Of a DNA stretch of 64,000 bases, positions 1 to 23,355 are shown in pieces. The stretch is from Patescibacteria group bacterium (GTDB lineage Bacteria > Patescibacteriota > Minisyncoccia > Phycocordibacterales > Phycocordibacteraceae): NCBI GenBank assembly GCA_038057055.1, contig JBBUDY010000019.1:25101-89100 (forward strand), in the 5' to 3' direction. Positions within the stretch are counted from its first letter, which is position 1, and each line of letters opens with the position of its first letter. The translations under genes and the position numbers were made by a program. The notes under the pieces were generated by a model. It was not told the DNA's origin. It did not search any database and saw nothing but the letters and a program-made list of their open reading frames with translations.

Positions 1-456
1 GCGTTTGTCGATGCTCTCCGGGTGGGGAAAGAAATCTCCCTAGCAACACACCTTGCGGTCAAACAGGACGGTATGGAGCTCTATGGTTTCGTTGACACTG
101 CTGACCGCGATTTCTTCGAGCTCTTGCTTTCTGTCTCAGGCGTGGGGCCGAAAACAGCGCTCTCGGTCTTGCGCCGCGCGCCGCGCGAGGCACTCATTGG
201 CGCAATCAGCAAACGCGATTTGAGCTATCTTACGAAAGTAGTCGGGCTCGGGAAAAAGAGCGTAGAAAAAATGTTGGTTGAATTGTCGGAAAAAGTTGGT
301 GATGCCGCACACGATGACGCAGATGGTGATGTCTTCGACACCCTCGTCGCGCTCGGCTACACCGAGCGCGAAGCACGCAAAGCGCTCCAAGCGATACCTG
401 AGACAATTGTTGGTAAAGATGCGCGGCTCAAAGCAGCTCTTTCTTCTCATACATGA
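1..456 (+). CDS. ruvA: Holliday junction helicase subunit RuvA (N-terminus cut by window edge)
   Basis: Frame is open from nt 1. HhH motifs LLLSVSGVGPKTALSVL and LTKVVGLGKKSVEKM, and C-terminal domain III LVALGYTEREARKAL. Stop overlaps the next start (ATGA). Confidence 0.9.
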   Translation, partial: AFVDALRVGKEISLATHLAVKQDGMELYGFVDTADRDFFELLLSVSGVGPKTALSVLRRAPREALIGAISKRDLSYLTKVVGLGKKSVEKMLVELSEKVGDAAHDDADGDVFDTLVALGYTEREARKALQAIPETIVGKDARLKAALSSHT

Positions 457-8572: not shown

Positions 8573-10243
8573 ATGGACCTACCGTTTGATGTTACCCATG
8601 AGGAGGGAAAGCTTGCAGAGATACGTGAGCGAGAAGAGGAGGATGTGGCGCGCATCCTCTCTGACAAATATGGTATACCCTACGTCGACCTCGCATTAAA
8701 GCAGATTGACAACGATGCACTTCGCATTATTCCTGAAGCGCAAGCCCGTGCCGCCGAGGCAGTTGCCTTCGCAAAAACCGCAAAGGTACTTTCGCTCGCT
8801 ATCCATAATCCAAATAATCCAGCTCTCGAAAAACTTTCTGCCGACCTCGCTGAACGCGGGTTCTCCACCCATACCTCCCTTGCCTCAAAGAAAAGTTTAG
8901 ATAAGGCATTTGCGCGCTACAAAGAACTCTCCTTTGCTACCGAATCAAAACCGGGTGTTTTTACTATCACCCAAGAAACATTCACAAGAGTCATAAATAA
9001 AAGTAATACACTTGCTTCTTTCACTCATGAACTCGATGTCGCGGTCTCCGAGAAATCACTTGATCGCGTCTCGCACCTGCTTGAAGTCATTCTCTCCGGT
9101 GCATTTGCGCTTCGTGCGTCTGATATTCACTTTGAGCCGGAAGAAACAAAGACTCTTCTGCGCTTGCGTATTGACGGCGTCTTATTCGATACTCTATTTT
9201 TTGACCCCGCGACATTCCATCAGCTCAACTCTCGCATCAAACTGCTCTCGGGCATAAAGTTGAATGTGAGCAATCAGGCGCAGGACGGTCGCTTCAGTGT
9301 TGAAAGGGACGGATTGCAAATCGAGATGCGTGTCTCCTTTATTCCGAGTAATTATGGCGAAACTATTGTGATGCGTATTCTAAATCCTGAAGCAACAAAA
9401 AAATCTACAAAAGATCTTGGTATTCACCCAAAACTTCTTGCACGACTTGAGACAGAAATACATCGACCAAACGGTATGCTTCTCAACACGGGACCAACCG
9501 GAAGCGGTAAGACGACCACGTTGTACACTTTTCTCCGAGAGATACACACACCAGAAATAAAAATCATCACGATTGAAGACCCGGTCGAGTATCATCTCGA
9601 GGGTATCGTGCAGACGCAAGTTGAAGGAGAAAAATATACGTTTGCCGAAGGGCTCCGCTCAATTGTGCGCCAAGACCCAGACATCATCATGGTCGGCGAA
9701 ATCCGCGACGGCGAAACGGCCAATATCGCTATCCAGGCAGCGCTCACTGGCCACTTCGTCTTCTCTACCCTTCACACCAACGACGCCGCCGGCACCTTCC
9801 CACGCCTCGTCGACCTTGGTGCAGACCCAAAGTCCTTTGGTTCGGCGGTCACTGTGTCAATGGCACAGCGACTTATGCGCACTCTTGATCCTGACAGAAA
9901 GAAAGAGCGATCCCTTACTGACGAAGAGAAAAGAATGATTGAAAAAGTGTTTGCCCCGCTTGCTGATAAATCACTTGTCCCTAAAAAAATAGAGACGGTA
10001 TGGGATCCTTCTCCCATAAGTGCAGATGAAACAGGTTATAAGGGGCGAGTCGGCATCCATGAAGCTATTTTTATGGACGATGAACTCGCTAACTTCATCC
10101 GTGATAATCCTCCCGAAAACGAGATCGCCAAATTGACGAGCAAGCAGGGCTACCTCACCCTCGCACAGGACGGTATTATCAAAGCACTCGCCGGCATCAC
10201 CTCCCTCTCCGAAGTCGCCGCCACCGTCGACCTTCCTCGATAA
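8573..10243 (+). CDS. pilB: Type IV pilus / type II secretion assembly ATPase (PilB/GspE family), copy 1
   Basis: Walker A GPTGSGKTTTLY, Asp and His boxes (VGEIRD, TGHFVFSTLHTN), N-terminal T2SSE_N-like region. Confidence 0.9.
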   Translation: MDLPFDVTHEEGKLAEIREREEEDVARILSDKYGIPYVDLALKQIDNDALRIIPEAQARAAEAVAFAKTAKVLSLAIHNPNNPALEKLSADLAERGFSTHTSLASKKSLDKAFARYKELSFATESKPGVFTITQETFTRVINKSNTLASFTHELDVAVSEKSLDRVSHLLEVILSGAFALRASDIHFEPEETKTLLRLRIDGVLFDTLFFDPATFHQLNSRIKLLSGIKLNVSNQAQDGRFSVERDGLQIEMRVSFIPSNYGETIVMRILNPEATKKSTKDLGIHPKLLARLETEIHRPNGMLLNTGPTGSGKTTTLYTFLREIHTPEIKIITIEDPVEYHLEGIVQTQVEGEKYTFAEGLRSIVRQDPDIIMVGEIRDGETANIAIQAALTGHFVFSTLHTNDAAGTFPRLVDLGADPKSFGSAVTVSMAQRLMRTLDPDRKKERSLTDEEKRMIEKVFAPLADKSLVPKKIETVWDPSPISADETGYKGRVGIHEAIFMDDELANFIRDNPPENEIAKLTSKQGYLTLAQDGIIKALAGITSLSEVAATVDLPR

Positions 10244-10248
10244 ACTCT

Positions 10249-11622
10249 ATGGGTCTCTCGCTTATATTTTTTCTTTTATTCATAACAATCGTTGTTAGTA
10301 TCGGTTTTGTTTCCTCTCGAGAAGAAACCGAAGATGGTTTTATGATTGCTGAACGTAAGGTGGAGGGGGTCCAGGTTGCTGCCACAATGAGCGCTGCTTT
10401 CTTTGACGGGTTTATGTTGTCTGTCTACATAGCCTATATCTATCAATATGGTTTTTCTGCTATCTGGATGTTTGTCGGCTTAGCGCTCGGGCTGTTGTTA
10501 CTCAAGAAATATGCGTGGCGAATTAAACAGAAAGCGGATGAGTTGAAGGTGTATTCGATGCCGGAATATTTTTATAGGATGTTGGGAAAGAGAAATGGGC
10601 TCATGTTTTCGTTGTTTCTCGTACTCCAATTTTTTCTTATACTGATTGTTAACCTCATAGTCAGTAGTAAGGTCTTATCGGCTATTTTTCCCATTTCATA
10701 TGTATTCGCTTTGAGTATCGGAGGGGTAATCGTTTTATCGTATCTTTTGCTCGCAGGATTTAAGGCGGTCGTAAGGACGGATTTCTTTCAAGTCATCATT
10801 GGGCTTATTATGGCGTTCACGGTATCCGTTTATCTGTTTGGTAAAACCCACATCCCGGCTGCAGAGTTTAGTCTCGGGGCACTCGGTCTTGGGGACACTC
10901 TCGGTTTTGTGATCCTTGGTGGTCTCGGAATGATGGCCGCTCCTGATTTATGGCAACGAATATTTGCAACAAAGGATGAAAAGAATTTGCGGCGGGGGCT
11001 CAACTATTCAGTCGTTATACTTATGGTATTCGCGGTTGTGGTTAGTGTCATTGGACTCGTTACAAAACAATTTTTTCCGGGCATCCTCCCTGAAGATGCC
11101 CTCGTCACCGGGTTTTCCCAACTGCTGCCTTTCGGACTTAAAGAACTTGGTATGATACTTTTGTATGCGGTGACACTCTCGTCAACGGATACCGTCACCT
11201 TTGTCGTCTCATCAATCTTTACGCGCGACCTCAATAACTACACAGAGAAATATAGCGCGACCTCCATGCGGAGGCTCACCCGCTTCTTCATGGTTGCTTT
11301 TATCATTCTCGCGCTCATCGTCGCTGTTTCATATCACGACATCATGCAGCTCGGGTTTTCGCTGGCGAGTTTGAACCTTGCGCTCTTCCCCGTGGTATTT
11401 GGATCACTCTATTGGAAGCTGAAACAAAAAGCGGTGTTTTGGAGCTTGGTTCTTGGGTTTCTAAGCATTCTTATACTGTTTGTCACGAGTCAGCTGAACC
11501 CACAAAACGCAATCATCTCATTGCCGGTTGTCTTATTCTCACTAATTATTTTTCAAAAACTTCTCAAGGCAGATTCTCCGCCTCTCGCCGAAGTCGCCGC
11601 CACGGTCGACTTGCCGAAATAA
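10249..11622 (+). CDS. Sodium:solute symporter (SSS) family transporter; C-terminus formed by a pilB-tail repeat
   Basis: About 12 TM helices. AGFKAVVRTDFFQ and PDLWQRIFATKDEK motifs are SSS-like. The last 14 codons duplicate the pilB tail. Confidence 0.7.
   Translation: MGLSLIFFLLFITIVVSIGFVSSREETEDGFMIAERKVEGVQVAATMSAAFFDGFMLSVYIAYIYQYGFSAIWMFVGLALGLLLLKKYAWRIKQKADELKVYSMPEYFYRMLGKRNGLMFSLFLVLQFFLILIVNLIVSSKVLSAIFPISYVFALSIGGVIVLSYLLLAGFKAVVRTDFFQVIIGLIMAFTVSVYLFGKTHIPAAEFSLGALGLGDTLGFVILGGLGMMAAPDLWQRIFATKDEKNLRRGLNYSVVILMVFAVVVSVIGLVTKQFFPGILPEDALVTGFSQLLPFGLKELGMILLYAVTLSSTDTVTFVVSSIFTRDLNNYTEKYSATSMRRLTRFFMVAFIILALIVAVSYHDIMQLGFSLASLNLALFPVVFGSLYWKLKQKAVFWSLVLGFLSILILFVTSQLNPQNAIISLPVVLFSLIIFQKLLKADSPPLAEVAATVDLPK
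11581..11622. repeat. pilB 3'-terminus repeat, copy 2 (PLAEVAATVDLPK*)
   Basis: Aligns to 10202-10243. Contains the identical 15-nt core CCGAAGTCGCCGCCA. Confidence 0.9.
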
Positions 11623-11632
11623 AGTAGGGGTG

Positions 11633-11641
11633 TGGTATAGT
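11633..11641 (+). promoter_or_regulatory. Extended -10 promoter TGgTATAGT, 6 nt before ATG 11648
   Basis: The motif TGTGGTATAGT is identical to the one upstream of hicB (49283-49293, minus strand). Confidence 0.5.
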
Positions 11642-11647
11642 TTATAT

Positions 11648-11863
11648 ATGAGCACCGTAACGATTCCCAAACAAGAATATCGAAGTCTGAAGCGTCAATC
11701 AGATGCGTATCGTGCTATTGCCGCCGGACGATTTGAATATGTGATCCGCGATAGCGTGGAAACCGTCATGAAAGATTTCGAAAAAACCGGGTTGTATAAC
11801 AAAAGATTCCTGGCCGATCTAGAAAAAGGACTGCGAAGGTCTTCTGTGTATAAGAATGCATGA
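11648..11863 (+). CDS. Putative antitoxin (partner of RelE/ParE-like toxin)
   Basis: 72-aa ORF whose stop overlaps the toxin start (ATGA). No recognisable family. Confidence 0.5.
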   Translation: MSTVTIPKQEYRSLKRQSDAYRAIAAGRFEYVIRDSVETVMKDFEKTGLYNKRFLADLEKGLRRSSVYKNA

Positions 11864-12108
11864 AAATCGCTCCGCTCCATGCGGACGTGACTGTGTATTT
11901 GCGTAAGCGTCAGTTGCTTCGTAAGTGGGATAAGGCGTCTAGACTTTTTGAGACAAACATTCGTCATCCGTCGTTAAATACGGAGCTTATGGAACCACAT
12001 TGGCGCGGCGTGTATTCTTTCAGAATCGATAAGAAATACCGTGCGATGTTTCTTCCAATCTCAAATGACAACGTAGAGATCATTGGAATTACAAATCATT
12101 ATAAATAA
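11860..12108 (+). CDS. RelE/ParE-superfamily toxin
   Basis: 82 aa. RHPSL...YRAMF pattern shared with the toxin at 30456-30701. Typical TA gene pair geometry. Confidence 0.6.
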   Translation: MKIAPLHADVTVYLRKRQLLRKWDKASRLFETNIRHPSLNTELMEPHWRGVYSFRIDKKYRAMFLPISNDNVEIIGITNHYK

Positions 12109-12147
12109 CGATTGACAGGATGTAACCGTTGTATATACTTCGGGTAT

Positions 12148-12432
12148 ATGAAAACTGCCATAAGCTTCAAGATAGACACAGACGTCCGCAACCGAGCACG
12201 AATTGTTGCTAAGAAAATCGGCGTGCCTCTTTCAATGGTCGTGAACCAGCAATTGAAGCAGTTTGCGAATAATCGAAGTATTGAGTTCTATGAGCCACTT
12301 ATCCCGAATGCGAAGACTCGAAAAATTCTCGATGAGGCCATGCGAGATATTAAAGAAGGTCGAGAGGACAAATTCTCTCCCGCATTTACGAATATAAAAG
12401 ATATGGACCAATGGCTTGATAGAAAGGCATGA
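12148..12432 (+). CDS. RelB/DinJ-family antitoxin
   Basis: MKTAISFKIDTDVRNRARIVAKKIGVPLSMVVNQQLKQF is an RHH/DinJ-like N-terminus. Overlaps the toxin start. Confidence 0.7.
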   Translation: MKTAISFKIDTDVRNRARIVAKKIGVPLSMVVNQQLKQFANNRSIEFYEPLIPNAKTRKILDEAMRDIKEGREDKFSPAFTNIKDMDQWLDRKA

Positions 12433-12692
12433 TTGTCATTTATTCTAAAAAATTCCGAAGGAATTACGAGAAGCTTCCACGTAAGCTGCAGGAAAAATTT
12501 AAGCACCGCCGAAACTTATTTCTTGAGAATCAGTTCGACTCGATTCTAAACAATCACCAATTATATGATCCATATGCAGGATGCCGAAGCATAAACGTAA
12601 CGGGTGATTACCGCGCCGTTTTCTATCACGAAAGCCCGGGTATCATCCAATTCATTGCTATCGGCACACATCACGAACTTTTTGGCACATAA
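12429..12692 (+). CDS. RelE/YafQ-family mRNA interferase toxin
   Basis: 87 aa. KKFRRNYEKLPRKLQEKF...GDYRAVF...IGTHHELF pattern. Confidence 0.7.
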   Translation: MIVIYSKKFRRNYEKLPRKLQEKFKHRRNLFLENQFDSILNNHQLYDPYAGCRSINVTGDYRAVFYHESPGIIQFIAIGTHHELFGT

Positions 12693-12693
12693 C

Positions 12694-12744
12694 AGCAGCA
12701 CCTCGCTTGCCGAAGTCGCCGCCATGGTCAACCTCCCGCGTTAA
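12694..12744. repeat. pilB 3'-terminus repeat, copy 3 (orphan; SSTSLAEVAAMVNLPR*)
   Basis: 17 codons align to 10193-10243. Starts 2 nt after the toxin stop and is not part of any ORF. Confidence 0.9.
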
Positions 12745-12817
12745 TTTATTTAGTCACTGTTTGTGTTCCATGTCTCTAACGGTCGTTAGACTTATGGAAC
12801 AGCTTAAAGGAACAATC

Positions 12818-12841
12818 TCCCGTTCATAGTCCTCAAGGCAA
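12818..12841. repeat. 24-nt direct repeat copy A (TCCCGTTCATAGTCCTCAAGGCAA)
   Basis: Matches 13668-13691 with one mismatch. Copy B forms the 5' strand of the closing stem of the candidate RNA. Confidence 0.85.
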
Positions 12842-12951
12842 AACCCTCAAATGAACGCGGGATGGGTATTGTGGCTGTACAGAACGGGCACTTGCGTATC
12901 TACAGGGGGGGGTAGGATTGGGGCATTAGAAACGGGACTAACCAATTTTGT

Positions 12952-13296
12952 ATGAATGAGACTCCCAGTAAAAAGATGGGTTTGGAACAGGGTCGAGATG
13001 GAAATTTGACCCATGAAAAAAAGAGAGAATATCGAAAAAGAAGAACACTGTACGAGAAAGCTATTAAGGAGGAATACAAAAATGGGAGACTGCTTGGGAA
13101 GCCCGATATCTTACTACCCGCTAATATAGATGCTATTTTTGAAAATTACTTTCGAGATAGAATAAAGGAGAGGGGTATTTCAGTTAGCGAAGAGGATTTA
13201 TTCAAGCTTATAGAAGATTTTGAAATGGCGGTAGCAGAGACAAAGGAATACGTCTTTGGGAAGATTAGAGAAGAACTTGATCATATGCCGCCATGA
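12952..13296 (+). CDS. Hypothetical protein (Lys/Glu-rich)
   Basis: 114-aa ORF in a cassette bounded by the 24-nt repeats. No recognisable motif. Confidence 0.5.
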   Translation: MNETPSKKMGLEQGRDGNLTHEKKREYRKRRTLYEKAIKEEYKNGRLLGKPDILLPANIDAIFENYFRDRIKERGISVSEEDLFKLIEDFEMAVAETKEYVFGKIREELDHMPP

Positions 13297-13350
13297 AGAA
13301 AACCATCGACGAATTGTAAAGTGTTTCACTACTAAACTAACATCACCACT

Positions 13351-13665
13351 ATGTCAGCAGAATTCCCAAAATCAGTTCTTCCTCCTCAAGTAGAAAAAAC
13401 TCCGGACGTAGACAAAGCTGAAGTACTGTCCGCCGCAATATCTCGAGTCGATGAAAAATTCGGTAATGTGCCAGATGATGCTTTTGTTCTAATAAAAAGA
13501 GAGAGCCCCTCCGAGGTTTCTGTGACTCTTTCAGATCGAAGGTACCACGCGCAGATTAATCTGTCGGAGACATTACATTTACCTGATGACATCGCTCTCA
13601 GGACAGAAACTGGAAGTGTGACAACTAGTTCAATGGGAGCACTAAGAAAGTTATTAAAACAGTAA
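13351..13665 (+). CDS. Hypothetical protein
   Basis: 104-aa ORF. Its stop lies 2 nt before repeat copy B. Confidence 0.5.
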   Translation: MSAEFPKSVLPPQVEKTPDVDKAEVLSAAISRVDEKFGNVPDDAFVLIKRESPSEVSVTLSDRRYHAQINLSETLHLPDDIALRTETGSVTTSSMGALRKLLKQ

Positions 13666-13667
13666 AA

Positions 13668-13908
13668 TCCCGTCCATAGTCCTCAAGGCAATAATCCAGC
13701 CCCAGTTTTGTAGCGCGATCGCTATTACCGGTTTCCCTCGTTTTGCTTCGTAGATTCCAAGTAAAATTGGTACCCGTCACAAAACTGGGGCTGGAGGGGA
13801 CGAAACACCTGAGGAGTTCCACAGCAACACGACCGAAATCGTGGAACCAAAGAGTCCTTGGGGAAACGCCCGAAGCCGTCAAGCCTTGCCTAGAGGAGTA
13901 TGAACAGG
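13668..13908 (+). ncRNA. Candidate structured RNA of unknown class (~240 nt)
   Basis: Perfect 16-bp stem 13696-13711/13779-13794. Closing stem 13669-13689 with 13883-13908. Hairpins 13816-13822/13841-13847 and 13857-13875. A separate ruvB promoter-like TGTGATAGAAT lies at 13954-13964. Strand is not proven. Confidence 0.4.
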
Positions 13909-13984
13909 ATTAAGGGAACACTTATGTCGCGGCACATGCTGCGACCTGGAAACTGTGATAGAATGTTAGCACTACAACATTTTT

Positions 13985-14980
13985 ATGTCAAGCTTGTCGA
14001 ATATCAATCCTGCCGCTCCTACCTCGCTCGATTCGGCACTCCGCCCTGTCAATTGGAATGAATACGTCGGACAGAAGCAGGTAAAAGCGAATGTCCGCAT
14101 CTCTCTTGATGCGGCAAAAAAGCGCGGGAGCATGCCCGAACATATCCTCTTCTACGGTCCACCGGGCGTCGGTAAGACAACACTCGCTCACTTGGTCGCC
14201 ACAACTCTCGAGTCGCCCTTAAAAAGCACATCGGGGGTTGCTATCGAGCGTGCGGGCGACCTCGCCGCTATTCTTACCAACCTTGAACCAAACACGGTTC
14301 TTTTTATCGATGAAATTCATCGGCTTTCACGAAAGATAGAGGAGCTTCTCTACCCTGCACTTGAATCGGGACATCTCGACATTGTGCTCGGGAAAGGCCC
14401 TTCGGCGCGCACCGTCGAGCTCTCACTCCCCTCTTTCACCCTTGTCGGTGCGACGACCCGTGTTGCGGAACTCTCGGGACCCTTGCGTTCGCGCTTTGGT
14501 GGCGGCGTGTTCCAGCTTGATTTCTACAATGACGAGGATTTGCGCGACATCATTCGCCGCTCGGCGTTTCTGCTTAACTTGGAAGCGCCCGAAGAGGTAA
14601 TCGAGCGTATCGCCGCAAGAAGCCGCGCGACGCCGAGAGTCGCGAACGCGCTTCTGAAGCGCGTTCGCGACTTCTCTGAGGTACATGAACGGGCGCTTTC
14701 TGAAGAGCTGTGCGATGAGGCGTGCGAACTCTTCGGCATCGACGCCCACGGTCTGACCAAAGATGATCGGCGCTATCTCGAGACGCTTCTGAAGAGCTTC
14801 CGAGGCGGCCCCGCCGGTGTTCAGGCACTCGCGGCTGCGCTCCACGAAGACTCTGACACCGTCGAACATGTCTATGAGCCCTATCTGCTCCGTCTCGGCT
14901 TCATCGAGCGCTCCTCGCGCGGCCGCATCCTCACTCCCGCCGGCCGCGCCTATCTTCAGGGTGACACGCTTCCAGTGTAA
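13985..14980 (+). CDS. ruvB: Holliday junction helicase RuvB
   Basis: Walker A GPPGVGKTTLA, Walker B LFIDEIHRL, sensor TTR. Confidence 0.96.
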   Translation: MSSLSNINPAAPTSLDSALRPVNWNEYVGQKQVKANVRISLDAAKKRGSMPEHILFYGPPGVGKTTLAHLVATTLESPLKSTSGVAIERAGDLAAILTNLEPNTVLFIDEIHRLSRKIEELLYPALESGHLDIVLGKGPSARTVELSLPSFTLVGATTRVAELSGPLRSRFGGGVFQLDFYNDEDLRDIIRRSAFLLNLEAPEEVIERIAARSRATPRVANALLKRVRDFSEVHERALSEELCDEACELFGIDAHGLTKDDRRYLETLLKSFRGGPAGVQALAAALHEDSDTVEHVYEPYLLRLGFIERSSRGRILTPAGRAYLQGDTLPV

Positions 14981-14992
14981 GCTGTCTCGTAT

Positions 14993-15547
14993 ATGTCCGG
15001 GCACAGTAAATGGTCGCAGATTAAGAGACAGAAGTCGGTAACCGATGCAGCGAGGAGCCGTGTGTTTTCTCGTTATGCGAGGCTTATCGCGCTTGAATCG
15101 AAAAAGGCGAACGGTATTCTCACGACCCCTTCTCTCGCTGCGGTGATTGCACGTGCGAAGGCGGTCAATATGCCGAAGGAGAACATCGAACGTGCCATTA
15201 CTAAAGGCATTTCAAAAGATTCTGGCTCGCTCGAACAGGTGGTGTATGAAGCCTATGGCCCGGGCGGTGTCGCCATTCTCATTGATGCCCTCACCGACAA
15301 TAAGAACCGTACGACACAAGAGATAAAACATTTACTCGTTCTTCAAGGGATTGAACTCGCGGCGCCGGGCGCCGCGAGTTGGGCTTTCACTAAAACGAGC
15401 CTTGTTTATACACCAAACGAACCTTTTATAGACGTCGTGGGAGAAGATGAGGAGAAGCTTGGTGCGGTGCTGGAAGCGCTCGACGAACATGAGGACGTAC
15501 AACAAATATTCACGAACGCGCGTGGCTATGAGGATACTGGCGATTGA
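14993..15547 (+). CDS. yebC: YebC/PmpR-family transcriptional regulator (short form)
   Basis: MSGHSKWSQIKRQK N-terminus and NMPKENIERAI motif. Confidence 0.85.
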   Translation: MSGHSKWSQIKRQKSVTDAARSRVFSRYARLIALESKKANGILTTPSLAAVIARAKAVNMPKENIERAITKGISKDSGSLEQVVYEAYGPGGVAILIDALTDNKNRTTQEIKHLLVLQGIELAAPGAASWAFTKTSLVYTPNEPFIDVVGEDEEKLGAVLEALDEHEDVQQIFTNARGYEDTGD

Positions 15548-16004
15548 TCCAGGGTATGACCGACTTGGTGTCGCAGTCATCGAGGGGAACTCGTCCCGGC
15601 CAATCCTAGTGTGGAGTGAGTGTATTCTCCCTGATAAGGGTACACGCGAGAAACGTCTTGCACATGTGTGGAGAGCAGTTACTGCTGCCATAAAAAAATA
15701 TTCGCCTGATGCTCTTGCTCTCGAGACTCTTTTTTTCAGTATCAATAAGAAGACAGCTATTGGGGTGGCGGAAGCGCGCGGGGCAATCTTGGCCGCTGCC
15801 GGTATTGCCTCTCTTCCGGTCATAGAATGTTCGCCACAACAGATAAAGCTCGCAGTGACTGGTTATGGCGGGGCTGATAAAATTGCGGTCGCACGTATGA
15901 TTCCACAGCTCCTCACACTATCTAAAAAGAAACGTCTGGACGACGAATTAGACGCAATAGCTATTGGTATCACAGCGCTTGCTCGCGGTCCCCTACGACA
16001 CTAA
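15528..16004 (+). CDS. ruvC: Crossover junction endodeoxyribonuclease RuvC
   Basis: MRILAIDPGYDRLG catalytic N-terminus, LALETLFF, DELDAIAIG. Start overlaps the yebC end. Confidence 0.9.
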   Translation: MRILAIDPGYDRLGVAVIEGNSSRPILVWSECILPDKGTREKRLAHVWRAVTAAIKKYSPDALALETLFFSINKKTAIGVAEARGAILAAAGIASLPVIECSPQQIKLAVTGYGGADKIAVARMIPQLLTLSKKKRLDDELDAIAIGITALARGPLRH

Positions 16005-16154
16005 TCCACAGTACACATAAGAAGTACTTGCGTGAATATAAATTTTTGGTACATATACCACTATGATGGACGAAGATGAAGAAATTCATGATGAAATTCT
16101 CCATGATGAGTTGGATGAATTTATGGATGAGGAGGAAGAAAGATACTAAATAAG

Positions 16155-16163
16155 TGTTAGCAT
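16155..16163 (+). promoter_or_regulatory. Extended -10 (TGtTAGCAT) 6 nt before PBP ATG
   Basis: Same TGnTAnnnT-N6-ATG geometry as the other genes listed. Confidence 0.4.
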
Positions 16164-16169
16164 AACGCT

Positions 16170-18314
16170 ATGAAACAGCAGCGCGCCCACTGGCGTCACA
16201 CGCTTGTCGCTTCCATCCTTACTCTCCTCGGACTCGGCTTCTTGTTTGTGGGCGGTGTTTTCTTTGTTGTGGTATTAACACCGGTCCCTGATATTGGTTC
16301 ATTCGCCTCTCGCCAGGTCGATCAATCAACAAAGATTTATGATCGCACCGGGCAAATTCTTCTCTATGACTATAATCGAGATGCGAGAAGGGAAATTATT
16401 CCTATCGCGAACATATCGCCAAATACCATCAACGCAACCATCGCAATAGAGGACTCAAGTTTCTATGAACATGGGGGAATTCGTTTCACCTCTATTTTTC
16501 GAGCTATGCTCACCGACGCTATAGGGGGGTCCCTTTCCCAAGGAGGTTCAACCATCACACAGCAAGTGGTTAAAAATACTCTCCTCACAAATCGAAAAAG
16601 TGTTATACGAAAAATCCATGAGTGGGTGTTAGCTATAAAAATGGAGCAGACATACTCGAAGGAACAGATTCTTGAAACATATCTCAATAACATCCCGTAT
16701 GGAGGAACACTCTATGGTATCGAAGCGGCGGCAGAATCATATTTTGGTATCCCTGCAAAAGACCTCACTCTCGCTGAGGCCGCATATCTCGCTTCAATGA
16801 TTCAAGCTCCTTCATATTATTCTCCGTATGGCATTCATCGAGCAGAACTTGATGCACGAAAAAACTTGGTTCTCGAGAGGATGCGCACATTAGGGTTCAT
16901 AGACGCCACGACCTATACCCACGCCATGGCTGAGAAAGTATCTTTCGCTACCGCGGGTCAGAATTCTATTATTGCTCCCCACTTTGTTTTTTATATTCTC
17001 AATCAACTTGAGACATTGTATGGTTCAAAAGCTCTGGTGTCTGGATTAAAAGTGACCACATCACTTGATGCAGACCTTCAAGTAAAGGCTGAATCAATTG
17101 TACATACGCATGCATTACAGAACGTAAAGAAATTTAATGCATCAAATGCTTCACTTATTGCTGTCGACCCTTTGACGGGACAGATCCTTGCAATGGTTGG
17201 TTCTCGGGACTTTTTTGATACCGCGATTGATGGCCAATACAATGCCTCCCTTTCATTACGACAACCCGGTTCCACAATGAAACCTTTTGTGTATTCGCTC
17301 GCCCTTATGCGCGGATATACACGCAATACAGTGATTTTCGACACGCCGACACAATTCTCAACCGCATGTAAACCATCAGATAATTTCAATAACGAATCTC
17401 CTTGTTATGCCCCTTCTAATTATGATGAAAAGTTTCGTGGTCCTATGACTTTTGAAACGGCACTCGCTCAATCTATCAATATCCCCGCTATTAAAACTTT
17501 GTACTTGGTGGGAATACAAAATGCCATAAATTTTGCAAAATCGTTTGGACTCACGACGCTTGGAGATCCAAACCAGTATGGACTCACTCTTGTACTCGGC
17601 GGCGGTGAGGTACGTCTTCTCGATCTTGTGAGCGCATATGCGGTATTCGCAAATAAAGGAGTACTGAACACTTCTACCGGCATACTTCAAGTTGATGATG
17701 CAAAGGGGAATGTGTTGCTTTCTTTTACTCCTCAACCCTCTCAGGTCCTCCCAGAAAATATCGCGCACGATATGTCTGCCATGCTTTCTGATGCTCCTGC
17801 TCGTTTACCAGAATATCCTCTTGATTCTCCTCTTTCTTTTAAGGGCTACGATGTTGCCGTAAAGACAGGTACGACCGATGATACTCGTGATGCATGGGTT
17901 GTTGGGTATACCCCCTCCATAACAATCGGCGTATGGGTTGGTAATAATGACAATACGCCAATGGTAAAATCTGTCGCTGGTTTTATTGCTGCACCTATGT
18001 GGCATGAAGTTATGGCATACGCACTCTCAAAATATCCAAAAATGTATTTTGGAGAACCGACTCCCATCCTTTCTTCAGTCCCCCCTCTCTTACAAGGGAA
18101 TTGGTACATTCCAGACCGCGAAGGAAATATTATTCCTCACGATTTATTGTATTGGACTAATAAGAACAATCCTCAAGTACCTCTTGTACATGACCCTTCG
18201 CAAGATCCACAATTCGCATCATGGGAGTATGGTGTATCGATGTGGTATGAAAGACACCCGGAACTTTTTTCGAGTGAAATACTGTTGCCAGTTCCGCTCT
18301 CAAACACTTTTTAA
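16170..18314 (+). CDS. Class A penicillin-binding protein (glycosyltransferase plus transpeptidase)
   Basis: GT51 motifs EDSSFYEHGG and GGSTITQQ. TPase motifs STMK and KTGTT. N-terminal TM anchor. Confidence 0.93.
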   Translation: MKQQRAHWRHTLVASILTLLGLGFLFVGGVFFVVVLTPVPDIGSFASRQVDQSTKIYDRTGQILLYDYNRDARREIIPIANISPNTINATIAIEDSSFYEHGGIRFTSIFRAMLTDAIGGSLSQGGSTITQQVVKNTLLTNRKSVIRKIHEWVLAIKMEQTYSKEQILETYLNNIPYGGTLYGIEAAAESYFGIPAKDLTLAEAAYLASMIQAPSYYSPYGIHRAELDARKNLVLERMRTLGFIDATTYTHAMAEKVSFATAGQNSIIAPHFVFYILNQLETLYGSKALVSGLKVTTSLDADLQVKAESIVHTHALQNVKKFNASNASLIAVDPLTGQILAMVGSRDFFDTAIDGQYNASLSLRQPGSTMKPFVYSLALMRGYTRNTVIFDTPTQFSTACKPSDNFNNESPCYAPSNYDEKFRGPMTFETALAQSINIPAIKTLYLVGIQNAINFAKSFGLTTLGDPNQYGLTLVLGGGEVRLLDLVSAYAVFANKGVLNTSTGILQVDDAKGNVLLSFTPQPSQVLPENIAHDMSAMLSDAPARLPEYPLDSPLSFKGYDVAVKTGTTDDTRDAWVVGYTPSITIGVWVGNNDNTPMVKSVAGFIAAPMWHEVMAYALSKYPKMYFGEPTPILSSVPPLLQGNWYIPDREGNIIPHDLLYWTNKNNPQVPLVHDPSQDPQFASWEYGVSMWYERHPELFSSEILLPVPLSNTF

Positions 18315-18333
18315 TTTTTTATATACTGTATTT

Positions 18334-19434
18334 CTATTGATTCATTGGAGAAACAAGATATAAGAGGGATGTATCACCTACCCCTTTTATAATGAGTGGT
18401 CGACCAACACCTGCCGCGAGAAGAGAAATACTTTCTGTGGTTGTAAGGGAAAGAGCTGTAGTAAGATATCGATGATTAAATGAGAGATCAAGTGCACTTC
18501 CTGATATGTGTGCTGGTATTGTCTCTGATGACTCACCAATATCTGTATTTCGTGCAAAAAAAGAAAAAGAATTCTTTTTTGGATCGAAACTGATACGTAT
18601 TTTTTGAAATGAATCAGAAAATATAACTGTTCGTTTTAAAGCTGTTTCAAAATCTTTTCGTAATATAACAGCTTCAACAATCGATTCTTTTGGAATAATT
18701 TGTCGATAATCGGGATAGGTGGCATTTGTCAATCTTGAAACAAGCATACCTATACTACTCACAAATGCACATTGATGATCATCAAAAGAAACAATAATAT
18801 CATCATCCGGTAATGCTTGAGCTATCTCAAGTGCATTTTTTGCTGGGATAAGAAATTTTCCTTGAGTTCCTTTATTTGAGAGTGGTACTTTTTTTTCTGC
18901 GAGTCTGAATGAATCTGTTGCAACCGCAGTGAGTACCCCTCCTTCTATAGATAAATATAGACTTGCGAGCTCTGGACGAACTACTGAAGATGATGCACAA
19001 GACGCTATGGTAGTGAAAAGAGTACGGAGAAGAACACCAGGAACTATAATTCTATTTTTTGCATTTTCTGGAAATGGTATTGAAGGAAAATCATCATATG
19101 GAATGGTTTTTATTGAACTTTTCCCTGTACCGCTTATAAGGGTAATAACATCACCTATATGTTCGAGATTAATTTTTCCCTCATAAGTAAGGGAACTTGC
19201 TATTTGTTGTAATACACTAGCAGGAATAGCAACAACCCCGTTAGAAATAATTTGTCCTTCTAGTTTTAAATCAATACCGGTCTCAAGATTTGTCGCCCTC
19301 ATTTTTATACCTTCATCGCTCGCAATAAGTAATACTGAAGAGAGAGCTGGGAGTGTCCCTATTTTTTTCTCAGCAAAACGAGAAACAATATGTACTGCAT
19401 CTGAGAATTTCTTTTTTTCAATTGAAATATTCAT
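18334..19434 (-). CDS. dnaN: DNA polymerase III beta sliding clamp
   Basis: 366 aa, position immediately downstream of dnaA, three-domain length, N-terminus MNISIEKKKFSDAV. Confidence 0.9.
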   Translation of the reverse strand: MNISIEKKKFSDAVHIVSRFAEKKIGTLPALSSVLLIASDEGIKMRATNLETGIDLKLEGQIISNGVVAIPASVLQQIASSLTYEGKINLEHIGDVITLISGTGKSSIKTIPYDDFPSIPFPENAKNRIIVPGVLLRTLFTTIASCASSSVVRPELASLYLSIEGGVLTAVATDSFRLAEKKVPLSNKGTQGKFLIPAKNALEIAQALPDDDIIVSFDDHQCAFVSSIGMLVSRLTNATYPDYRQIIPKESIVEAVILRKDFETALKRTVIFSDSFQKIRISFDPKKNSFSFFARNTDIGESSETIPAHISGSALDLSFNHRYLTTALSLTTTESISLLAAGVGRPLIIKGVGDTSLLYLVSPMNQ

Positions 19435-19546
19435 ACAAGCTCTATTAGGACTGTTGATAAGGGGAAAAGTGAAGAAAAGCTATATACATATTGGTTATTT
19501 TCATAGGAAGAAAATATATAAAATGTTGATAAGTCTTCATATAGAT
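19435..19546. promoter_or_regulatory. Candidate oriC segment (dnaA-dnaN intergenic)
   Basis: Two identical 9-mers TGTTGATAA (19452-19460, 19524-19532), which are TTATCAACA on the other strand, one mismatch from the DnaA box TTATCCACA. AT-rich tract AAAATATATAAAAT. Confidence 0.5.
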
Positions 19547-20899
19547 TCATATAAGGAGTGTTCGTATATTTTGTATTTCCTTTGCAAGCTCACTATCCAC
19601 AATTACTTCACGCTTTATCTTCTCACATGAGTGGATAACCGTCGTGTGATCACGTCCCCCAAGTTTCGTACCAATAGTGGGGTAAGAAATACTAAAATCC
19701 TCCCGAAGAAGGTACATAATCACCTGTCGAGGACGTACTACTTCCCTCCTCCGTGTTTTTTCATAAATACTTTCTTCATCAATACCGTAATATTCAGCAA
19801 CTTTATCAACAATATTCTTCACTGATATATTTTTTTGCGGTCGGGTGAATGAACGTAATGATTGACGCACTTCCGCTATATTAGGGGCAAATCCTTTCAC
19901 TTGAGCATTACAAATAATACTATTTACCATACCCTCTAATTCACGAATAGAACCGGACATAGAGGTTGCAACATACTCAACAACCTCATCTGAGAGAATA
20001 ACCCCATGACTTGCCGCCTTCTTCTTCACAATAGCCATACGCGACTCAGGATCGGGCTCCCCAATATCGATAGTCATACCACTCGCCAAACGCCCTTTTA
20101 AACGCTCGGTAATATCGGGAATAGCGAGTGGTGCGCGGTCAGAAGAAAATATGATTTGTTTGTTTGTGTCGTGGAGGGCATTAAATAAATGGAAGAGTTC
20201 CTCCTCACTCCGCTCTTTTTTTGAAAGAAATTGTATATCATCGATAATAAGAAGATCATAATGACGATATTTTTCTTTAAATCGATTTGCAGTACCTGCT
20301 TGTACTGAATCAGTGTAATCAACCACAAATTTTTCTGACGTGAGATAAAACACCTTTCTTCCTTGATACAATTTTTTAAATTGGTTTCCTATTGCTTGGA
20401 TGAGATGCGTCTTACCACGTCCAGTATCGCCGTAGATAAAAAGAGGATTATACGTAATACCCGGACGCGTCAGTACTGCTTGTGCAGCAGCATACGCAAG
20501 ATTATTAAATGAACCAATAACAAAGGTATCAAAGGTATAACGCGGATTTAAATTATCACTTTTATTTATATAGAATTCATTTAAAGGAAGTTCTAAAGCG
20601 CCGCTCCGTGTATTTTTTATTTCCTTCGGTATTTTTCTGTTTTCATTTTTTACAATAAGATATTCGATGTTACGAAACTCATATGATACACCACGAACTA
20701 TTTTTAACAAAAGTGAATGAAACTTTTTTAAATACCATTCTTTAAAAAACTGACTTGGTACACCAATATGTATGACCCCGTCCTCCACCTTTACAATAAA
20801 GCTATTATGGAACCAGGTATTGAAATTTGCGGCGGATATTGAGAGTTCGACTTGGGTGAGGACATATTCCCATAATTCCCTTGAATTTCCTTTATCCAT
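19547..20899 (-). CDS. dnaA: Chromosomal replication initiator DnaA
   Basis: AAA+ Walker A GDTGRGKTHL, Walker B LLIIDDIQFL, C-terminal DNA-binding helix (GGRDHTTVIHSCEKI). Start at MDKGNS. Confidence 0.96.
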   Translation of the reverse strand: MDKGNSRELWEYVLTQVELSISAANFNTWFHNSFIVKVEDGVIHIGVPSQFFKEWYLKKFHSLLLKIVRGVSYEFRNIEYLIVKNENRKIPKEIKNTRSGALELPLNEFYINKSDNLNPRYTFDTFVIGSFNNLAYAAAQAVLTRPGITYNPLFIYGDTGRGKTHLIQAIGNQFKKLYQGRKVFYLTSEKFVVDYTDSVQAGTANRFKEKYRHYDLLIIDDIQFLSKKERSEEELFHLFNALHDTNKQIIFSSDRAPLAIPDITERLKGRLASGMTIDIGEPDPESRMAIVKKKAASHGVILSDEVVEYVATSMSGSIRELEGMVNSIICNAQVKGFAPNIAEVRQSLRSFTRPQKNISVKNIVDKVAEYYGIDEESIYEKTRRREVVRPRQVIMYLLREDFSISYPTIGTKLGGRDHTTVIHSCEKIKREVIVDSELAKEIQNIRTLLI

Positions 20900-20990
20900 A
20901 GTGTTTTGGAGTATACGCTGACTCAGAAAGAAAGGCACGGGTAGCATTTCGGGGAAAACCTGTTAGTATCATGTGTATAACCTATATTGT

Positions 20991-21128
20991 ATGGCAAAAC
21001 AGACATATCAGCCGAAAAAGAAGAAAAGAGCTACCACTCACGGATTCCTCGCGAGGACAAAGACAAGTGCGGGGCGTAAAATCGTGCAGAAGCGCCGCCG
21101 CATCGGGCGCAAGCGCCTTACGCCGTAA
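20991..21128 (+). CDS. rpmH: 50S ribosomal protein L34
   Basis: [45 protein letters not shown]. Below the ORF-track length cutoff; found by reading the sequence. Confidence 0.93.
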
Positions 21129-21135
21129 TATTCTT

Positions 21136-21435
21136 GTGTTTCCTCGCCGCCAGAGGCTCTCTCGGGCAGTATTTCCCTCAGGATTGAAAGGAAAACGCCT
21201 TATTTCCAAAAATCTGTCCGTGCTCCTCCCTCAAGAAGGAGTACAAGGGTATGCAGTCGTTCTACCAAAAAAAGTCGCTCGGCTGGCGGTGACCCGTCAC
21301 CGTATTAAGCGGCATATCCTTGCTGCGCTCCGAACACTCTCCCTTCCTCCCTCCCTTATTGTTTTTCCCAAAATATCTGTACATAGTGTAAGCTACGAAG
21401 ACATTCGTACGGAATTAAAAAATCTTCTTTCGTGA
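21136..21435 (+). CDS. rnpA: RNase P protein component
   Basis: Position after rpmH. Basic N-terminus RRQRLSR and RHRIKRHILAALR motif. GTG start inferred. Confidence 0.75.
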   Translation: MFPRRQRLSRAVFPSGLKGKRLISKNLSVLLPQEGVQGYAVVLPKKVARLAVTRHRIKRHILAALRTLSLPPSLIVFPKISVHSVSYEDIRTELKNLLS

Positions 21436-22163
21436 TATCTTCTTTCTTTAACACCGCTTTCTACGATCCTATTTATAATGCGCTCGTCGCGCTCGTCTCA
21501 TTTATTCCTGGCGGAGATGTGGGTGTCGCAGTCATTCTTGTGACGATTGTTATACGCCTCCTCCTCCTCCCCTTCTCTCTTTCGGCGGCGCGCACCCAAC
21601 GGGCAATGAAAGTGCTTGAACCGAAGATTAAGGACCTGAAGGAAAAACATAAAGGTGATAAAGAAAAAGAAGCGCTTGAAACCCTCTCACTCTATCGAGA
21701 AGCAAAAGTGAACCCATTTGCAAGTATTCTGACCGTTTTTATTCAAATTCCTATTCTTCTCGCTCTCTACTTTGTCTTCTATTATGAACCATTTCCGGCT
21801 ATCAATGCTGCGCGACTGTACTCATTTACCCCGACTCCGGACATAGCATCACTTGAATTCCTCGGGCTAATTTCAGTTGCAAGCAAAAGTATGGTACTGG
21901 CACTTCTCGCAGGGATAACGCAGTTTTATCAGGCACATCTCGCACTCTCGGGGACAATGAAGCCATCAGACACAAAAAGTATGCAGAACGATTTTCAAAG
22001 GATTATGGGTCTGCAGTTGAAATATGTGTTTCCGTTCCTTATCGGAACCATTGCATACACCACCTCCGGTGCCATTGCGCTGTACTTTATTACCACAAAT
22101 CTTGCTGGCTCTTTGCAGGAAATATATGTGCGCCGAGCGCTTACGGCAGAAGAATCACAATGA
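21432..22163 (+). CDS. yidC: Membrane protein insertase YidC (short type)
   Basis: rpmH-rnpA-yidC synteny, 5 TM helices, LLLLPFSLSAARTQRAMKVLEPKIKDLKEKH. Confidence 0.88.
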   Translation: MISSFFNTAFYDPIYNALVALVSFIPGGDVGVAVILVTIVIRLLLLPFSLSAARTQRAMKVLEPKIKDLKEKHKGDKEKEALETLSLYREAKVNPFASILTVFIQIPILLALYFVFYYEPFPAINAARLYSFTPTPDIASLEFLGLISVASKSMVLALLAGITQFYQAHLALSGTMKPSDTKSMQNDFQRIMGLQLKYVFPFLIGTIAYTTSGAIALYFITTNLAGSLQEIYVRRALTAEESQ

Positions 22164-23348
22164 GTAACTCCAGAGTGAGAGATCATTTTTATTCACAAAT
22201 ACAAGCGTTGAATTAAGTTGATCGACAACGAGCGATTCAGCATCAAGTAAAGTGTTCGTTTCTTTCGTAAAGTCGAGTACCAGCTGTGCGTAGCGCCCAG
22301 ACACCTGTACCTTCCATATCCGATCAGAGAAATGTACCGCACCCTGATACCAGTCATCAGGGTAGGATCCAAAAGGAAATTCTAATGGGACACCACAGTA
22401 AATAACTGAATCATCGGCTGACCATACGCATTTGTCTGTGATGGTGGAAATAGGAAGGGAGAGAACCTCGTTTGTTGTTGTATTTACCAGCCCCATTTGC
22501 ATAGACCCATTGAGTGAATAACTCACGAGTACCCATTTTCCTGAAGGGCTTGCGAGAGCAGTGAGCCCCATGCGCGGACCGAATATGCGAGAAAAGATGC
22601 CAGCACTATCAACGAGATAGGCGTTGCCCAGGAGGAGAGATGATGGTTTTGTATAAACGAGATACTGATTTTTCCCTGCGAAAGAAGCATGAATTGCAGA
22701 TAAGGGTGTAGTGAATATTTGAGTTGCATGTGAGCCGTCAACATTCGTGAGTGAACCAATTGAACCATTGACTCCAGAGGCAAGAATAAGAACGCTCGTC
22801 GAGGACACGGCGATGTCAGCAAGATTTTGAGATAAAAAGAAACCTCCGGAACCACTAAGAGGGAGTGCATAGGTGTTGATAGTGGAAGAATTGTCTCCAG
22901 AGAGATAGCGCACAAAAGCAAGTGAGGCGTTCGGGAGCCAAGAGGCAGACTGGATACCCGGAATAGTTTTATTGGAGGTGCGTGTTGTTGCTCTTGAAGC
23001 GGTACTGTATGAGAAGATGTTGCCACTTTCGCGATCGATATAATTCACGGTCGTTTCTGGGGTAGAACTTGTGCTCACAGTCTTGCTGACGACACTTTCG
23101 CCGAGCGCGACCGGTCCCACACTGATACGTACTAATCGTGGTGAGACAGTAGTCGGGGTGTTAGGAGAGACGATGGTACCACCACCCTCGGGTATACCTG
23201 TCTGCGACGTTCCCTGCCCTGCTATCGGGAGACCTACCCCGGGAGTGGTCGTCACCACTGGCTTTTTGGCAAGGAATAAGAAATAAATAATCACCCCCAC
23301 TCCGAGGAGAAGTATCACCACTGCCGCAATAAGTAAGTACCGTCGCAT
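22155..23348 (-). CDS. Membrane-anchored extracellular protein of the T4SS-like cluster
   Basis: N-terminal TM (LLIAAVVILLLGVGVIIYFLFL), Ser/Thr-rich beta-rich body. Start at MRRYLL, 8 nt after the upstream stop. Confidence 0.55.
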   Translation of the reverse strand: MRRYLLIAAVVILLLGVGVIIYFLFLAKKPVVTTTPGVGLPIAGQGTSQTGIPEGGGTIVSPNTPTTVSPRLVRISVGPVALGESVVSKTVSTSSTPETTVNYIDRESGNIFSYSTASRATTRTSNKTIPGIQSASWLPNASLAFVRYLSGDNSSTINTYALPLSGSGGFFLSQNLADIAVSSTSVLILASGVNGSIGSLTNVDGSHATQIFTTPLSAIHASFAGKNQYLVYTKPSSLLLGNAYLVDSAGIFSRIFGPRMGLTALASPSGKWVLVSYSLNGSMQMGLVNTTTNEVLSLPISTITDKCVWSADDSVIYCGVPLEFPFGSYPDDWYQGAVHFSDRIWKVQVSGRYAQLVLDFTKETNTLLDAESLVVDQLNSTLVFVNKNDLSLWSYSL

Positions 23349-23355
23349 AGTTATT

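Follow-up and report, generated by a model that had tools for sequence, protein, structure and literature searches.

The window analysed here, a 64,000-nucleotide (nt) stretch of a Patescibacteria group bacterium (GenBank assembly GCA_038057055.1, contig JBBUDY010000019.1, positions 25,101 to 89,100 of the forward strand), carries a non-coding element immediately upstream of ruvB. A run of small genes, including toxin–antitoxin pairs and open reading frames (ORFs) without Pfam match, lies on the other side of the element. The element is a conserved, structured small RNA selected at the RNA level, and its gene is read away from ruvB on the opposite strand (Table 1). A previous sequence-only reading had proposed an unclassified structured RNA at 13668–13908 that need not be a ruvB leader; this proposal is borne out by conservation, by covariation and by the lack of any Rfam match, and the proposed boundaries are almost exact. 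The strand, which had been left open, is the minus strand, and the proposed length of ~240 nt holds for the window copy, the family norm being ~158 nt.

Table 1. Features of the RNA locus and its surroundings, in window coordinates; P1–P8 are the helical elements in RNA orientation.
Feature	Position	Strand	Remarks
Conserved structured small-RNA gene	13667–13910	-	244 nt in the window, family norm ~158 nt; covariance model R1
P1, 5' strand	13886–13910	-	inner half CUCCUCUAGGCAA nearly invariant across the family
P2 mini-hairpin, GGCU-UGAC-GGCU, at the junction	13874–13885	-	most conserved part of the RNA
P3–P7, long interrupted arm	13798–13871	-	P3, 13867–13871 with 13798–13802; apical P7 hairpin, 13828–13844
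P8, expanded hairpin	13695–13795	-	holds the 17-bp stem 13695–13711/13779–13795
P1, 3' strand	13667–13691	-	U-rich tail follows
U-rich tail after P1 (UUUACUGUUUUAAU), likely intrinsic termination region	13650–13666	-
Predicted promoter of the RNA	13963–13991	-	TTGACA, 17 nt, TAACAT, TG before the -10 element; 10/12 matches (window scan)
5' leader between predicted start site and P1	13911–13956	-	extra ~40-nt insert with hairpin, in a subset of loci
Extended -10 element of ruvB, TGTGATAGAAT	13954–13964	+	back-to-back with the -10 element of the RNA, overlapping
Leftover duplicate of the 3'-terminal ~48 nt of the RNA (short P8, P1 3' strand, tail)	12818–12865	-	3'-tail profile, E = 1e-11
Inserted segment between leftover and intact RNA gene	12866–13666	.	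two small ORFs, no Pfam match
pilB-like type II/IV secretion ATPase	8573–10243
Sodium:solute symporter	10249–11622
Two small gene pairs	11630–12692		second pair RelB/YafQ-type
Two small ORFs	12952–13296 and 13351–13665	+	within 12952–13665; no Pfam match
ruvB	13985–14980	+	followed by yebC and ruvC
Penicillin-binding protein, dnaN, dnaA	beyond ruvB-yebC-ruvC

The window copy is framed by a closing helix in which 13667–13691 and 13884–13908 match at 21 of 25 positions, confirming a previously proposed helix of ~20 base pairs (bp), and reading the minus strand turns two of the four mismatches into G-U pairs. The perfect helix described before as 16 bp (13696–13711/13779–13794) is also present and is 1 bp longer, so that the inverted repeat has 17-bp arms separated by 67 nt. 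Compared with dinucleotide shuffles, the 256-nt stretch around the element is unusually stable on both strands (z = -6.3 for plus and -6.1 for minus), and none of 200 shuffles is equally stable.

Homologues were collected with a degenerate pattern built from both arms, which retrieved 111 metagenome contigs from groundwater and sediment. In many of these contigs, the arms are inverted and lie ~130 nt apart, and extraction yielded 28 distinct sequences of ~158 nt, from which the covariance model R1 was built. R1 scores the window copy at 145.9 bits (E = 1e-34) on the minus strand and at 26 bits on the plus strand. Furthermore, it finds one full-length copy in nearly all searched metagenome contigs (loci L004–L101). 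In addition, 80 GTDB species-representative genomes were retrieved through their RuvB proteins (79–92% identical), labelled mostly as Candidatus Kaiserbacteria, Paceibacterota or Parcubacteria. Each of the 80 holds exactly one copy, directly upstream of ruvB and on the opposite strand, in a head-to-head arrangement. In the metagenome set, the gene facing the RNA head-to-head encodes RuvB at 91 of 99 loci, and across ~180 related loci the RNA occurs as a single copy, always beside ruvB. The gene is thus present once in every sampled Candidatus Kaiserbacteria genome, that is, universal in the sampled clade. Among these relatives is the sister strain L001 from Hainich groundwater, whose RuvB is identical to that of the window. 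A protein search with RuvB for more distant relatives returned only matches at least 85% identical. In one contig, L036 (Ga0172375_10214646, 1477 nt), the RNA is identical to that of L011, and the RuvB ORF equals that of L011 for the first ~68 residues and is then ~56% identical to the window RuvB; this ORF is probably an assembly chimera.

Outside cellular genomes, BLAST in distant mode against phage and plasmid collections gives no match to the element. One arm pattern has two matches in the viral contigs of IMG/VR (L002 and L003, a single uncultivated virus), which is about the number expected by chance; both are 20-nt exact matches to the 3' arm of the RNA inside a 66-codon ORF, with no other similarity. 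The core and 3'-arm patterns have no matches in viral contigs, and no candidate for a phage attP site was found there.

Selection on the RNA itself is evident from the pattern of change. RNAalifold, applied to a MAFFT alignment of the 28 distinct sequences, returns 55 pairs, 11 of them compensatory. In the alignment of the 80 species, 97.4% of cells in the consensus structure form standard pairs, compared with 40–51% when the partners are slid by 1–3 columns. Both sides change in 27 of the 55 pairs, the covariation among collected homologues that had been named as the check on the structured RNA, and none of 500 shuffles reaches the observed values. The consensus structure contains 761 G-U cells and 40 A-C cells, and this strong asymmetry indicates selection on an RNA and places that RNA on the minus strand, read from 13910 to 13667. 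Simultaneously, pairing falls from 97.4% to 80.7% if the plus strand is taken as the RNA, and the UUCG tetraloop found in homologues reads correctly on the minus strand only, appearing as CGAA on the plus strand. Family lengths run through 155, 156, 157, 158, 159 and 160 nt, without the periodicity of three that codons would impose, indicating that the element is not coding. Meanwhile, the RNA is far more conserved than the third codon positions of the adjacent ruvB and the intergenic sequence.

In RNA orientation, the fold begins with P1, a closing helix of ~24 bp whose outer half covaries in divergent members. The mini-hairpin P2 follows at the junction; its four pairs are paired in 100% of cases, the sole changes run from wobble to Watson–Crick pairs, and the string GGCUUGACGGCUUC in this region is found in 53 of 79 distinct sequences. 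The 5' side of the junction comprises 14 nt that are able to form P2, and the 3' side consists in most members of ACC, the P8 hairpin and UUU. The long arm then extends from P3 to P7, with compensatory changes in P3, P4, P6 and P7. Variation is greatest at its apex, P7, which carries a UUCG-type loop and is shortened by a deletion in L171 and L032 and expanded in L133. A hairpin suggested earlier at 13816–13847 corresponds to the conserved, covarying P6/P7 hairpin with this loop; a second suggested hairpin, at 13857–13875, finds no support in the comparative data, its bases forming the covarying long-range helices P3 and P4. Conserved bases are nearly all paired, and no conserved single-stranded seed region stands out.

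The peripheral hairpins differ greatly among members. Most homologues have a 5-bp P8; L176, L177 and L181 have none, their RNAs being 137–138 nt long and their 3' junction side only 1–2 nt. What brings the window copy to 244 nt is an insert of ~100 nt in P8; the only other loci that have it are L001 and, with 72% identity, L108. The perfect helix is, on sequence comparison, a recent, lineage-specific expansion of a dispensable peripheral hairpin and lies outside the conserved core. In L125 (3726–3961, equal to L061 8742–8977), an unrelated 95-nt insert with its own 16-bp stem occupies P8, giving an RNA of 236 nt, and in L133 (2543–2718) a longer P7 gives an RNA of 176 nt. The independent expansions in L133 and in L125/L061 indicate that both peripheral hairpins accept insertions.

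The signals predicted around the gene are those of a stand-alone small-RNA gene, with conservation that is independent of the flanking coding sequence. A promoter of the form TTGACA-N16-18-TAnnnT lies upstream of P1 in 102 of 120 distinct loci, its -10 element usually being TAGCAT or TAACAT preceded by TG. This element ends 15–19 nt before P1 in 86 of the 102 promoter-bearing loci, and in 16 loci, the window among them, the gap is 39–80 nt. At the other end, at least five T residues occur within the 9 nt after P1 in 82 of 120 distinct homologues; a simple terminator scan does not call this tail, because the loop of P1 is far beyond the limit of the scan. The extra 35–50 nt between promoter and P1 also occur in L001, L004, L015 and L072, with a different insert in L042, L075 and L102. 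The insert has its own hairpin and ends in the shared string GGCAUAAGUGUUCCCUU; it may represent either an extended RNA 5' end or a leader that is processed.

The promoters of the RNA and of ruvB are interlocked. The promoter-like motif previously pointed out between the element and ruvB is present and is refined to the extended -10 element of ruvB, which overlaps the divergent promoter of the RNA itself. This element (TGATAGAAT) shares 2 nt with the -10 element of the RNA, the likely -35 element of ruvB (TGAACA) is located inside the first 12 nt of the RNA, and the -35 element of the RNA, TTGACA, is the reverse complement of the ruvB "TG TCA A" formed by the start codon and a Ser codon. The overlap and back-to-back order, kept in most loci, suggest that occupation of one of the two promoters precludes occupation of the other.

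The 3' end of the RNA gene borders an insertion hotspot for toxin–antitoxin and defence cassettes. The convergent pilB-like ATPase gene is represented by a long copy in 55 loci; in about 20 of them its stop codon lies within ~20 nt of the RNA 3' end, and in the remainder 0.1–3.5 kb is inserted between the two. The inserts are mostly RelB/YafQ-type pairs, together with an NYN nuclease, a cytosine methylase fragment accompanied by a NOV_C-domain protein, and a Ham1 protein. Tail duplications mark the hotspot: in eight loci, including the window, a second copy of the 3'-terminal 25–50 nt of the RNA lies in the same orientation 0.6–1.6 kb downstream. The window leftover contains a 24-nt direct repeat of 13667–13690 with two mismatches, and equivalent leftovers are present in L032, L071, L093, L102, L103, L104 and L112. 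In L001, the element directly follows the toxin gene, and the counterpart of ~12693–13655 is absent. Intact gene and leftover carry different P8 hairpins in L102 and L103, which suggests that the insertion replaced the 3'-terminal portion of the RNA gene, as it does at tRNA and transfer-messenger RNA (tmRNA) genes. At those anchors, too, the 3' end of a stable-RNA gene borders variable toxin–antitoxin and defence cargo, and a direct repeat of the 3'-terminal ~50 nt flanks the insertions while the gene-proximal copy keeps the RNA intact. The present RNA differs in having no tRNA-like or tmRNA-like features according to ARAGORN, and its inserted segments, only 0.6–1.6 kb long, contain no integrase. 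Apart from this proposed case, chromosomal docking sites of this kind are known mainly at genes for tRNA and tmRNA.

Window 13656–23349 (9.7 kb) differs from L001 by four substitutions, three of which fall inside the RNA gene (13674, 13804 and 13838), in keeping with replacement of its 3' part; the boundary of recombination between the two strains thus lies within that gene, not at its edge. The sole indel over this distance is 2 nt at 13662–13663, just past the RNA 3' end. Farther along the hotspot, window 12402–12692 and L001 4797–5091 hold divergent alleles of a YafQ/ParE-type toxin and of the antitoxin C-terminus, with both flanks 99.5–99.9% identical, which indicates allelic replacement within the hotspot. 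A repeat of ~37 nt flanks the two small gene pairs: it forms the end of the symporter gene (GCCGAAGTCGCCGCCAYGGTC, 11586–11622) and recurs 1.1 kb downstream at 12707–12745. This arrangement resembles the outcome of a second insertion in which the target, again the 3' end of a gene, was duplicated. Beyond the downstream repeat and before the leftover RNA tail, a 38-nt hairpin at 12765–12802 (GTTCCATGTCTCTAACG / CGTTAGACTTATGGAAC) may originally have served as the symporter terminator.

The RNA family is new relative to Rfam 15, in line with the former failure to match it to a known RNA signature. At gathering score, an Rfam 15 scan of the whole window reports two tRNAs only, neither near the element, and a lenient scan of the locus gives chance-level microRNA matches on the long hairpin only. 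Eight typical homologue loci have no Rfam 15 match at E <= 1, and a typical homologue of 211 nt has, at E <= 10, a single 13-bit match to MtlS that looks like chance. ARAGORN finds tRNA-Lys and tRNA-Gly elsewhere in the window and no tRNA or tmRNA at the element. Full-text literature searches that paired Kaiserbacteria, Patescibacteria or Parcubacteria with 6S or other non-coding RNAs turned up no mention of the RNA.

Several known RNAs nevertheless share parts of this design. The signal recognition particle (SRP) RNA (4.5S, ffs) is likewise a universal single-copy rod with paired 5' and 3' ends. The conserved part of SRP RNA is an apical GNRA loop with symmetric and asymmetric internal loops (domain IV), whereas the apex of the ruvB-adjacent RNA, with its UUCG-type loop, is its most variable part and the conserved core is at the base; the family has no apical GNRA domain IV, and no Rfam SRP model matches it. 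Orphan RNAs known from comparative genomics, such as the raiA motif, OLE and ROOL, also combine a conserved core, expandable peripheral hairpins, strong covariation and a restricted taxonomic range. However, no sequence or Rfam 15 model similarity links them to the present RNA, which is much smaller than OLE and ROOL, is confined to one Candidate Phyla Radiation lineage and is fixed beside ruvB. Two motif resemblances on the plus strand were also considered. The hammerhead-like CUGAGGA and GAAAC are present, but inspection places their bases within helices and on the wrong strand, with an unsuitable closing pair for stem II; an RNase P-like string, GAAAGUCC, is ruled out by strand and size. 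A Holliday-junction mimic compensating for a missing RuvA is likewise rejected, as a ruvA homologue is present at window 1–453, identified by phmmer with an E. coli RuvA query.

Taken together, the locus is very probably best explained by a stand-alone small-RNA gene on the minus strand that is absent from Rfam 15, has a covarying fold, would act in trans and would anchor a hotspot. Transcription would start from the sigma-70-type promoter at 13991–13963 and end at the U-rich tract after the closing helix, giving a predicted primary transcript of ~13956 to 13655 around the conserved core of 13910 to 13667. The transcript would fold into a long rod closed by P1, with P2 at the junction, the P3–P7 arm capped by a UUCG-type loop and P8 as a dispensable side hairpin. 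A trans-acting, protein-binding role is suggested by the pairing of the conserved bases, by the tolerance of the periphery for deletion and large insertion, and by the lack of a same-strand gene downstream; the RNA may thus act as a stable housekeeping RNA with the P1/P2 junction as its recognition site. Its 3' end would provide the chromosomal anchor of the hotspot, where insertions replace the 3' part of the gene and leave the duplicated tail of ~50 nt. In its most specific form, slightly favoured over all other possibilities combined, this reading describes a new housekeeping RNA class specific to Candidatus Kaiserbacteria, not a divergent 6S or SRP RNA, in which P1/P2 binds a dedicated protein and the gene serves as the docking site of cassettes.

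The main competing explanation is a highly divergent 6S RNA (ssrS), which would mimic an open promoter, sequester the RNA polymerase holoenzyme and be released through product RNAs templated by the 5' junction strand and P1. Like 6S RNA, a single-copy housekeeping small RNA of 150–200 nt with its own promoter, the present RNA is ~158 nt long and occurs once in every genome sampled behind a strong predicted promoter. The overall shape fits as well: 6S RNA is a mostly double-stranded rod in which a closing stem and a long internal stem flank a conserved junction, and here P1 of ~24 bp and a P3–P7 arm equivalent to ~35 bp flank the junction. In both RNAs, sequence conservation is concentrated at this junction, and its peak here, on the 5' junction strand and the adjoining P1 strand, is the expected site of a product-RNA template. 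The resemblance ends at the junction itself, which is three- or four-way with a conserved mini-hairpin instead of an open bubble. The large two-sided, single-stranded central bubble of 6S RNA is not found in the family; the 3' side of the junction is almost devoid of unpaired bases in members without P8 (L176, L177 and L181), its 5' side appears to fold into P2, and the adjacent P3 covaries as a real helix. An alternative 7-bp pairing of CCUCAGG with the 3' strand of P1 is possible, but its covariation does not exceed that of shuffles, and no 6S-type Rfam model matches, even at E = 10 with the 211-nt query. A divergent 6S RNA is consequently considered unlikely, while being the strongest of the alternatives. 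A main role in cis is somewhat less probable again. In that case, the promoter of the RNA would compete with or tune ruvB-yebC-ruvC, and the fold would mainly stabilise and terminate the divergent transcript. The back-to-back overlap of the -10 elements, the overlap of the RNA -35 element with the ruvB ATG and the position of the likely ruvB -35 element inside the RNA, an arrangement kept in ~85% of loci, all fit such a role. Nevertheless, 55 conserved pairs, an invariant junction and covarying internal helices exceed the needs of a simple terminator hairpin, and in 16 loci an insert of 35–50 nt parts the promoter from P1 and leaves the RNA itself unchanged.

Two further explanations are very improbable, each to a similar degree. 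The element might be a DNA element, namely a miniature inverted-repeat transposable element, an attC-like site or a retron msr/msd, as hinted at by its 24-nt terminal inverted arms, the equally good folding of both strands, the partial second copy 850 bp away beside cassette-like toxin–antitoxin genes, and an order of parts on the minus strand (end pairing, short hairpins, long hairpin) that resembles retron non-coding RNA. A mobile element of this kind is at odds with the one copy per genome at a constant position relative to neighbouring genes in 80 of 80 species, the strong excess of G-U over A-C, the absence of a visible target-site duplication at the element ends, and the lack of copies in the phage and plasmid collections and viral contigs searched. 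The window itself contains one full copy and one 3' fragment, and relatives have one copy beside ruvB, unlike miniature inverted-repeat transposable elements, which are dispersed in many copies with terminal inverted repeats and target-site duplications. Integron attC sites are imperfect palindromes of 57–141 nt that end in RYYYAAC and GTTRRRY core sites and lie near an integron integrase; by eye, no such core sites occur at the arm ends of the 244-nt window element. A retron would have a reverse-transcriptase gene next to it, downstream and on the same strand; here the downstream genes (toxin–antitoxin, small ORFs and the pilB-like ATPase) are convergent. No integrase was found among the Pfam-scanned ORFs and no reverse transcriptase among the scanned neighbouring ORFs, a scope that takes in only part of the flanking conserved genes. 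The element might instead be a plus-strand 5' leader or riboswitch of ruvB, given that it lies immediately upstream of that gene and that the plus strand folds well too. The RNA strand is, however, opposite to ruvB, as the plus-strand deficit in pairing and the conversion of UUCG loops into CGAA attest; the promoter of ruvB is downstream of the element, and the genes downstream on the side of the RNA are convergent in all loci.

Several considerations weigh against the favoured reading of a stand-alone, trans-acting RNA gene. Because the 80-species alignment (A3) was made to fit the model, its share of paired cells is overestimated; the independent MAFFT and RNAalifold result agrees with it. 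The clade is narrow, all genome homologues having been reached through RuvB proteins at least 79% identical, and part of the sequence invariance reflects this relatedness and the selection of the metagenome set by exact arm matches. Promoter conservation is confounded, because TTGACA overlaps the ruvB start codon and the two -10 elements overlap each other. The transcript, its ends and its abundance are all predictions. The protein-binding role is a best guess drawn from the architecture, and the insertion mechanism proposed for the hotspot has to accommodate the absence of an integrase from every inserted segment scanned with Pfam.

In Candidate Phyla Radiation bacteria, genomes measure ~1 Mb and non-coding DNA is scarce. 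Within such a stripped-down lineage, a structured RNA that every sampled member retains, at a fixed position and behind a strong predicted promoter, is likely to have an important role. More than 100 distinct aligned sequences with clear covariation, a known strand and predicted ends form a basis for the design of experiments. Identification of the RNA as a very divergent 6S RNA would extend the structural range known for the 6S family; otherwise, it represents a new ribonucleoprotein component in a major uncultured radiation. Meanwhile, the hotspot at the 3' end of the gene offers a defined site for finding mobile defence and toxin–antitoxin cargo, and it hints at an unidentified site-specific recombination system. 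In the wider surroundings, 18334–22163 holds minus-strand dnaN and dnaA and then plus-strand rnpA and yidC; lying within 5–8 kb of the RNA gene, these genes place the RNA locus close to the likely replication origin.

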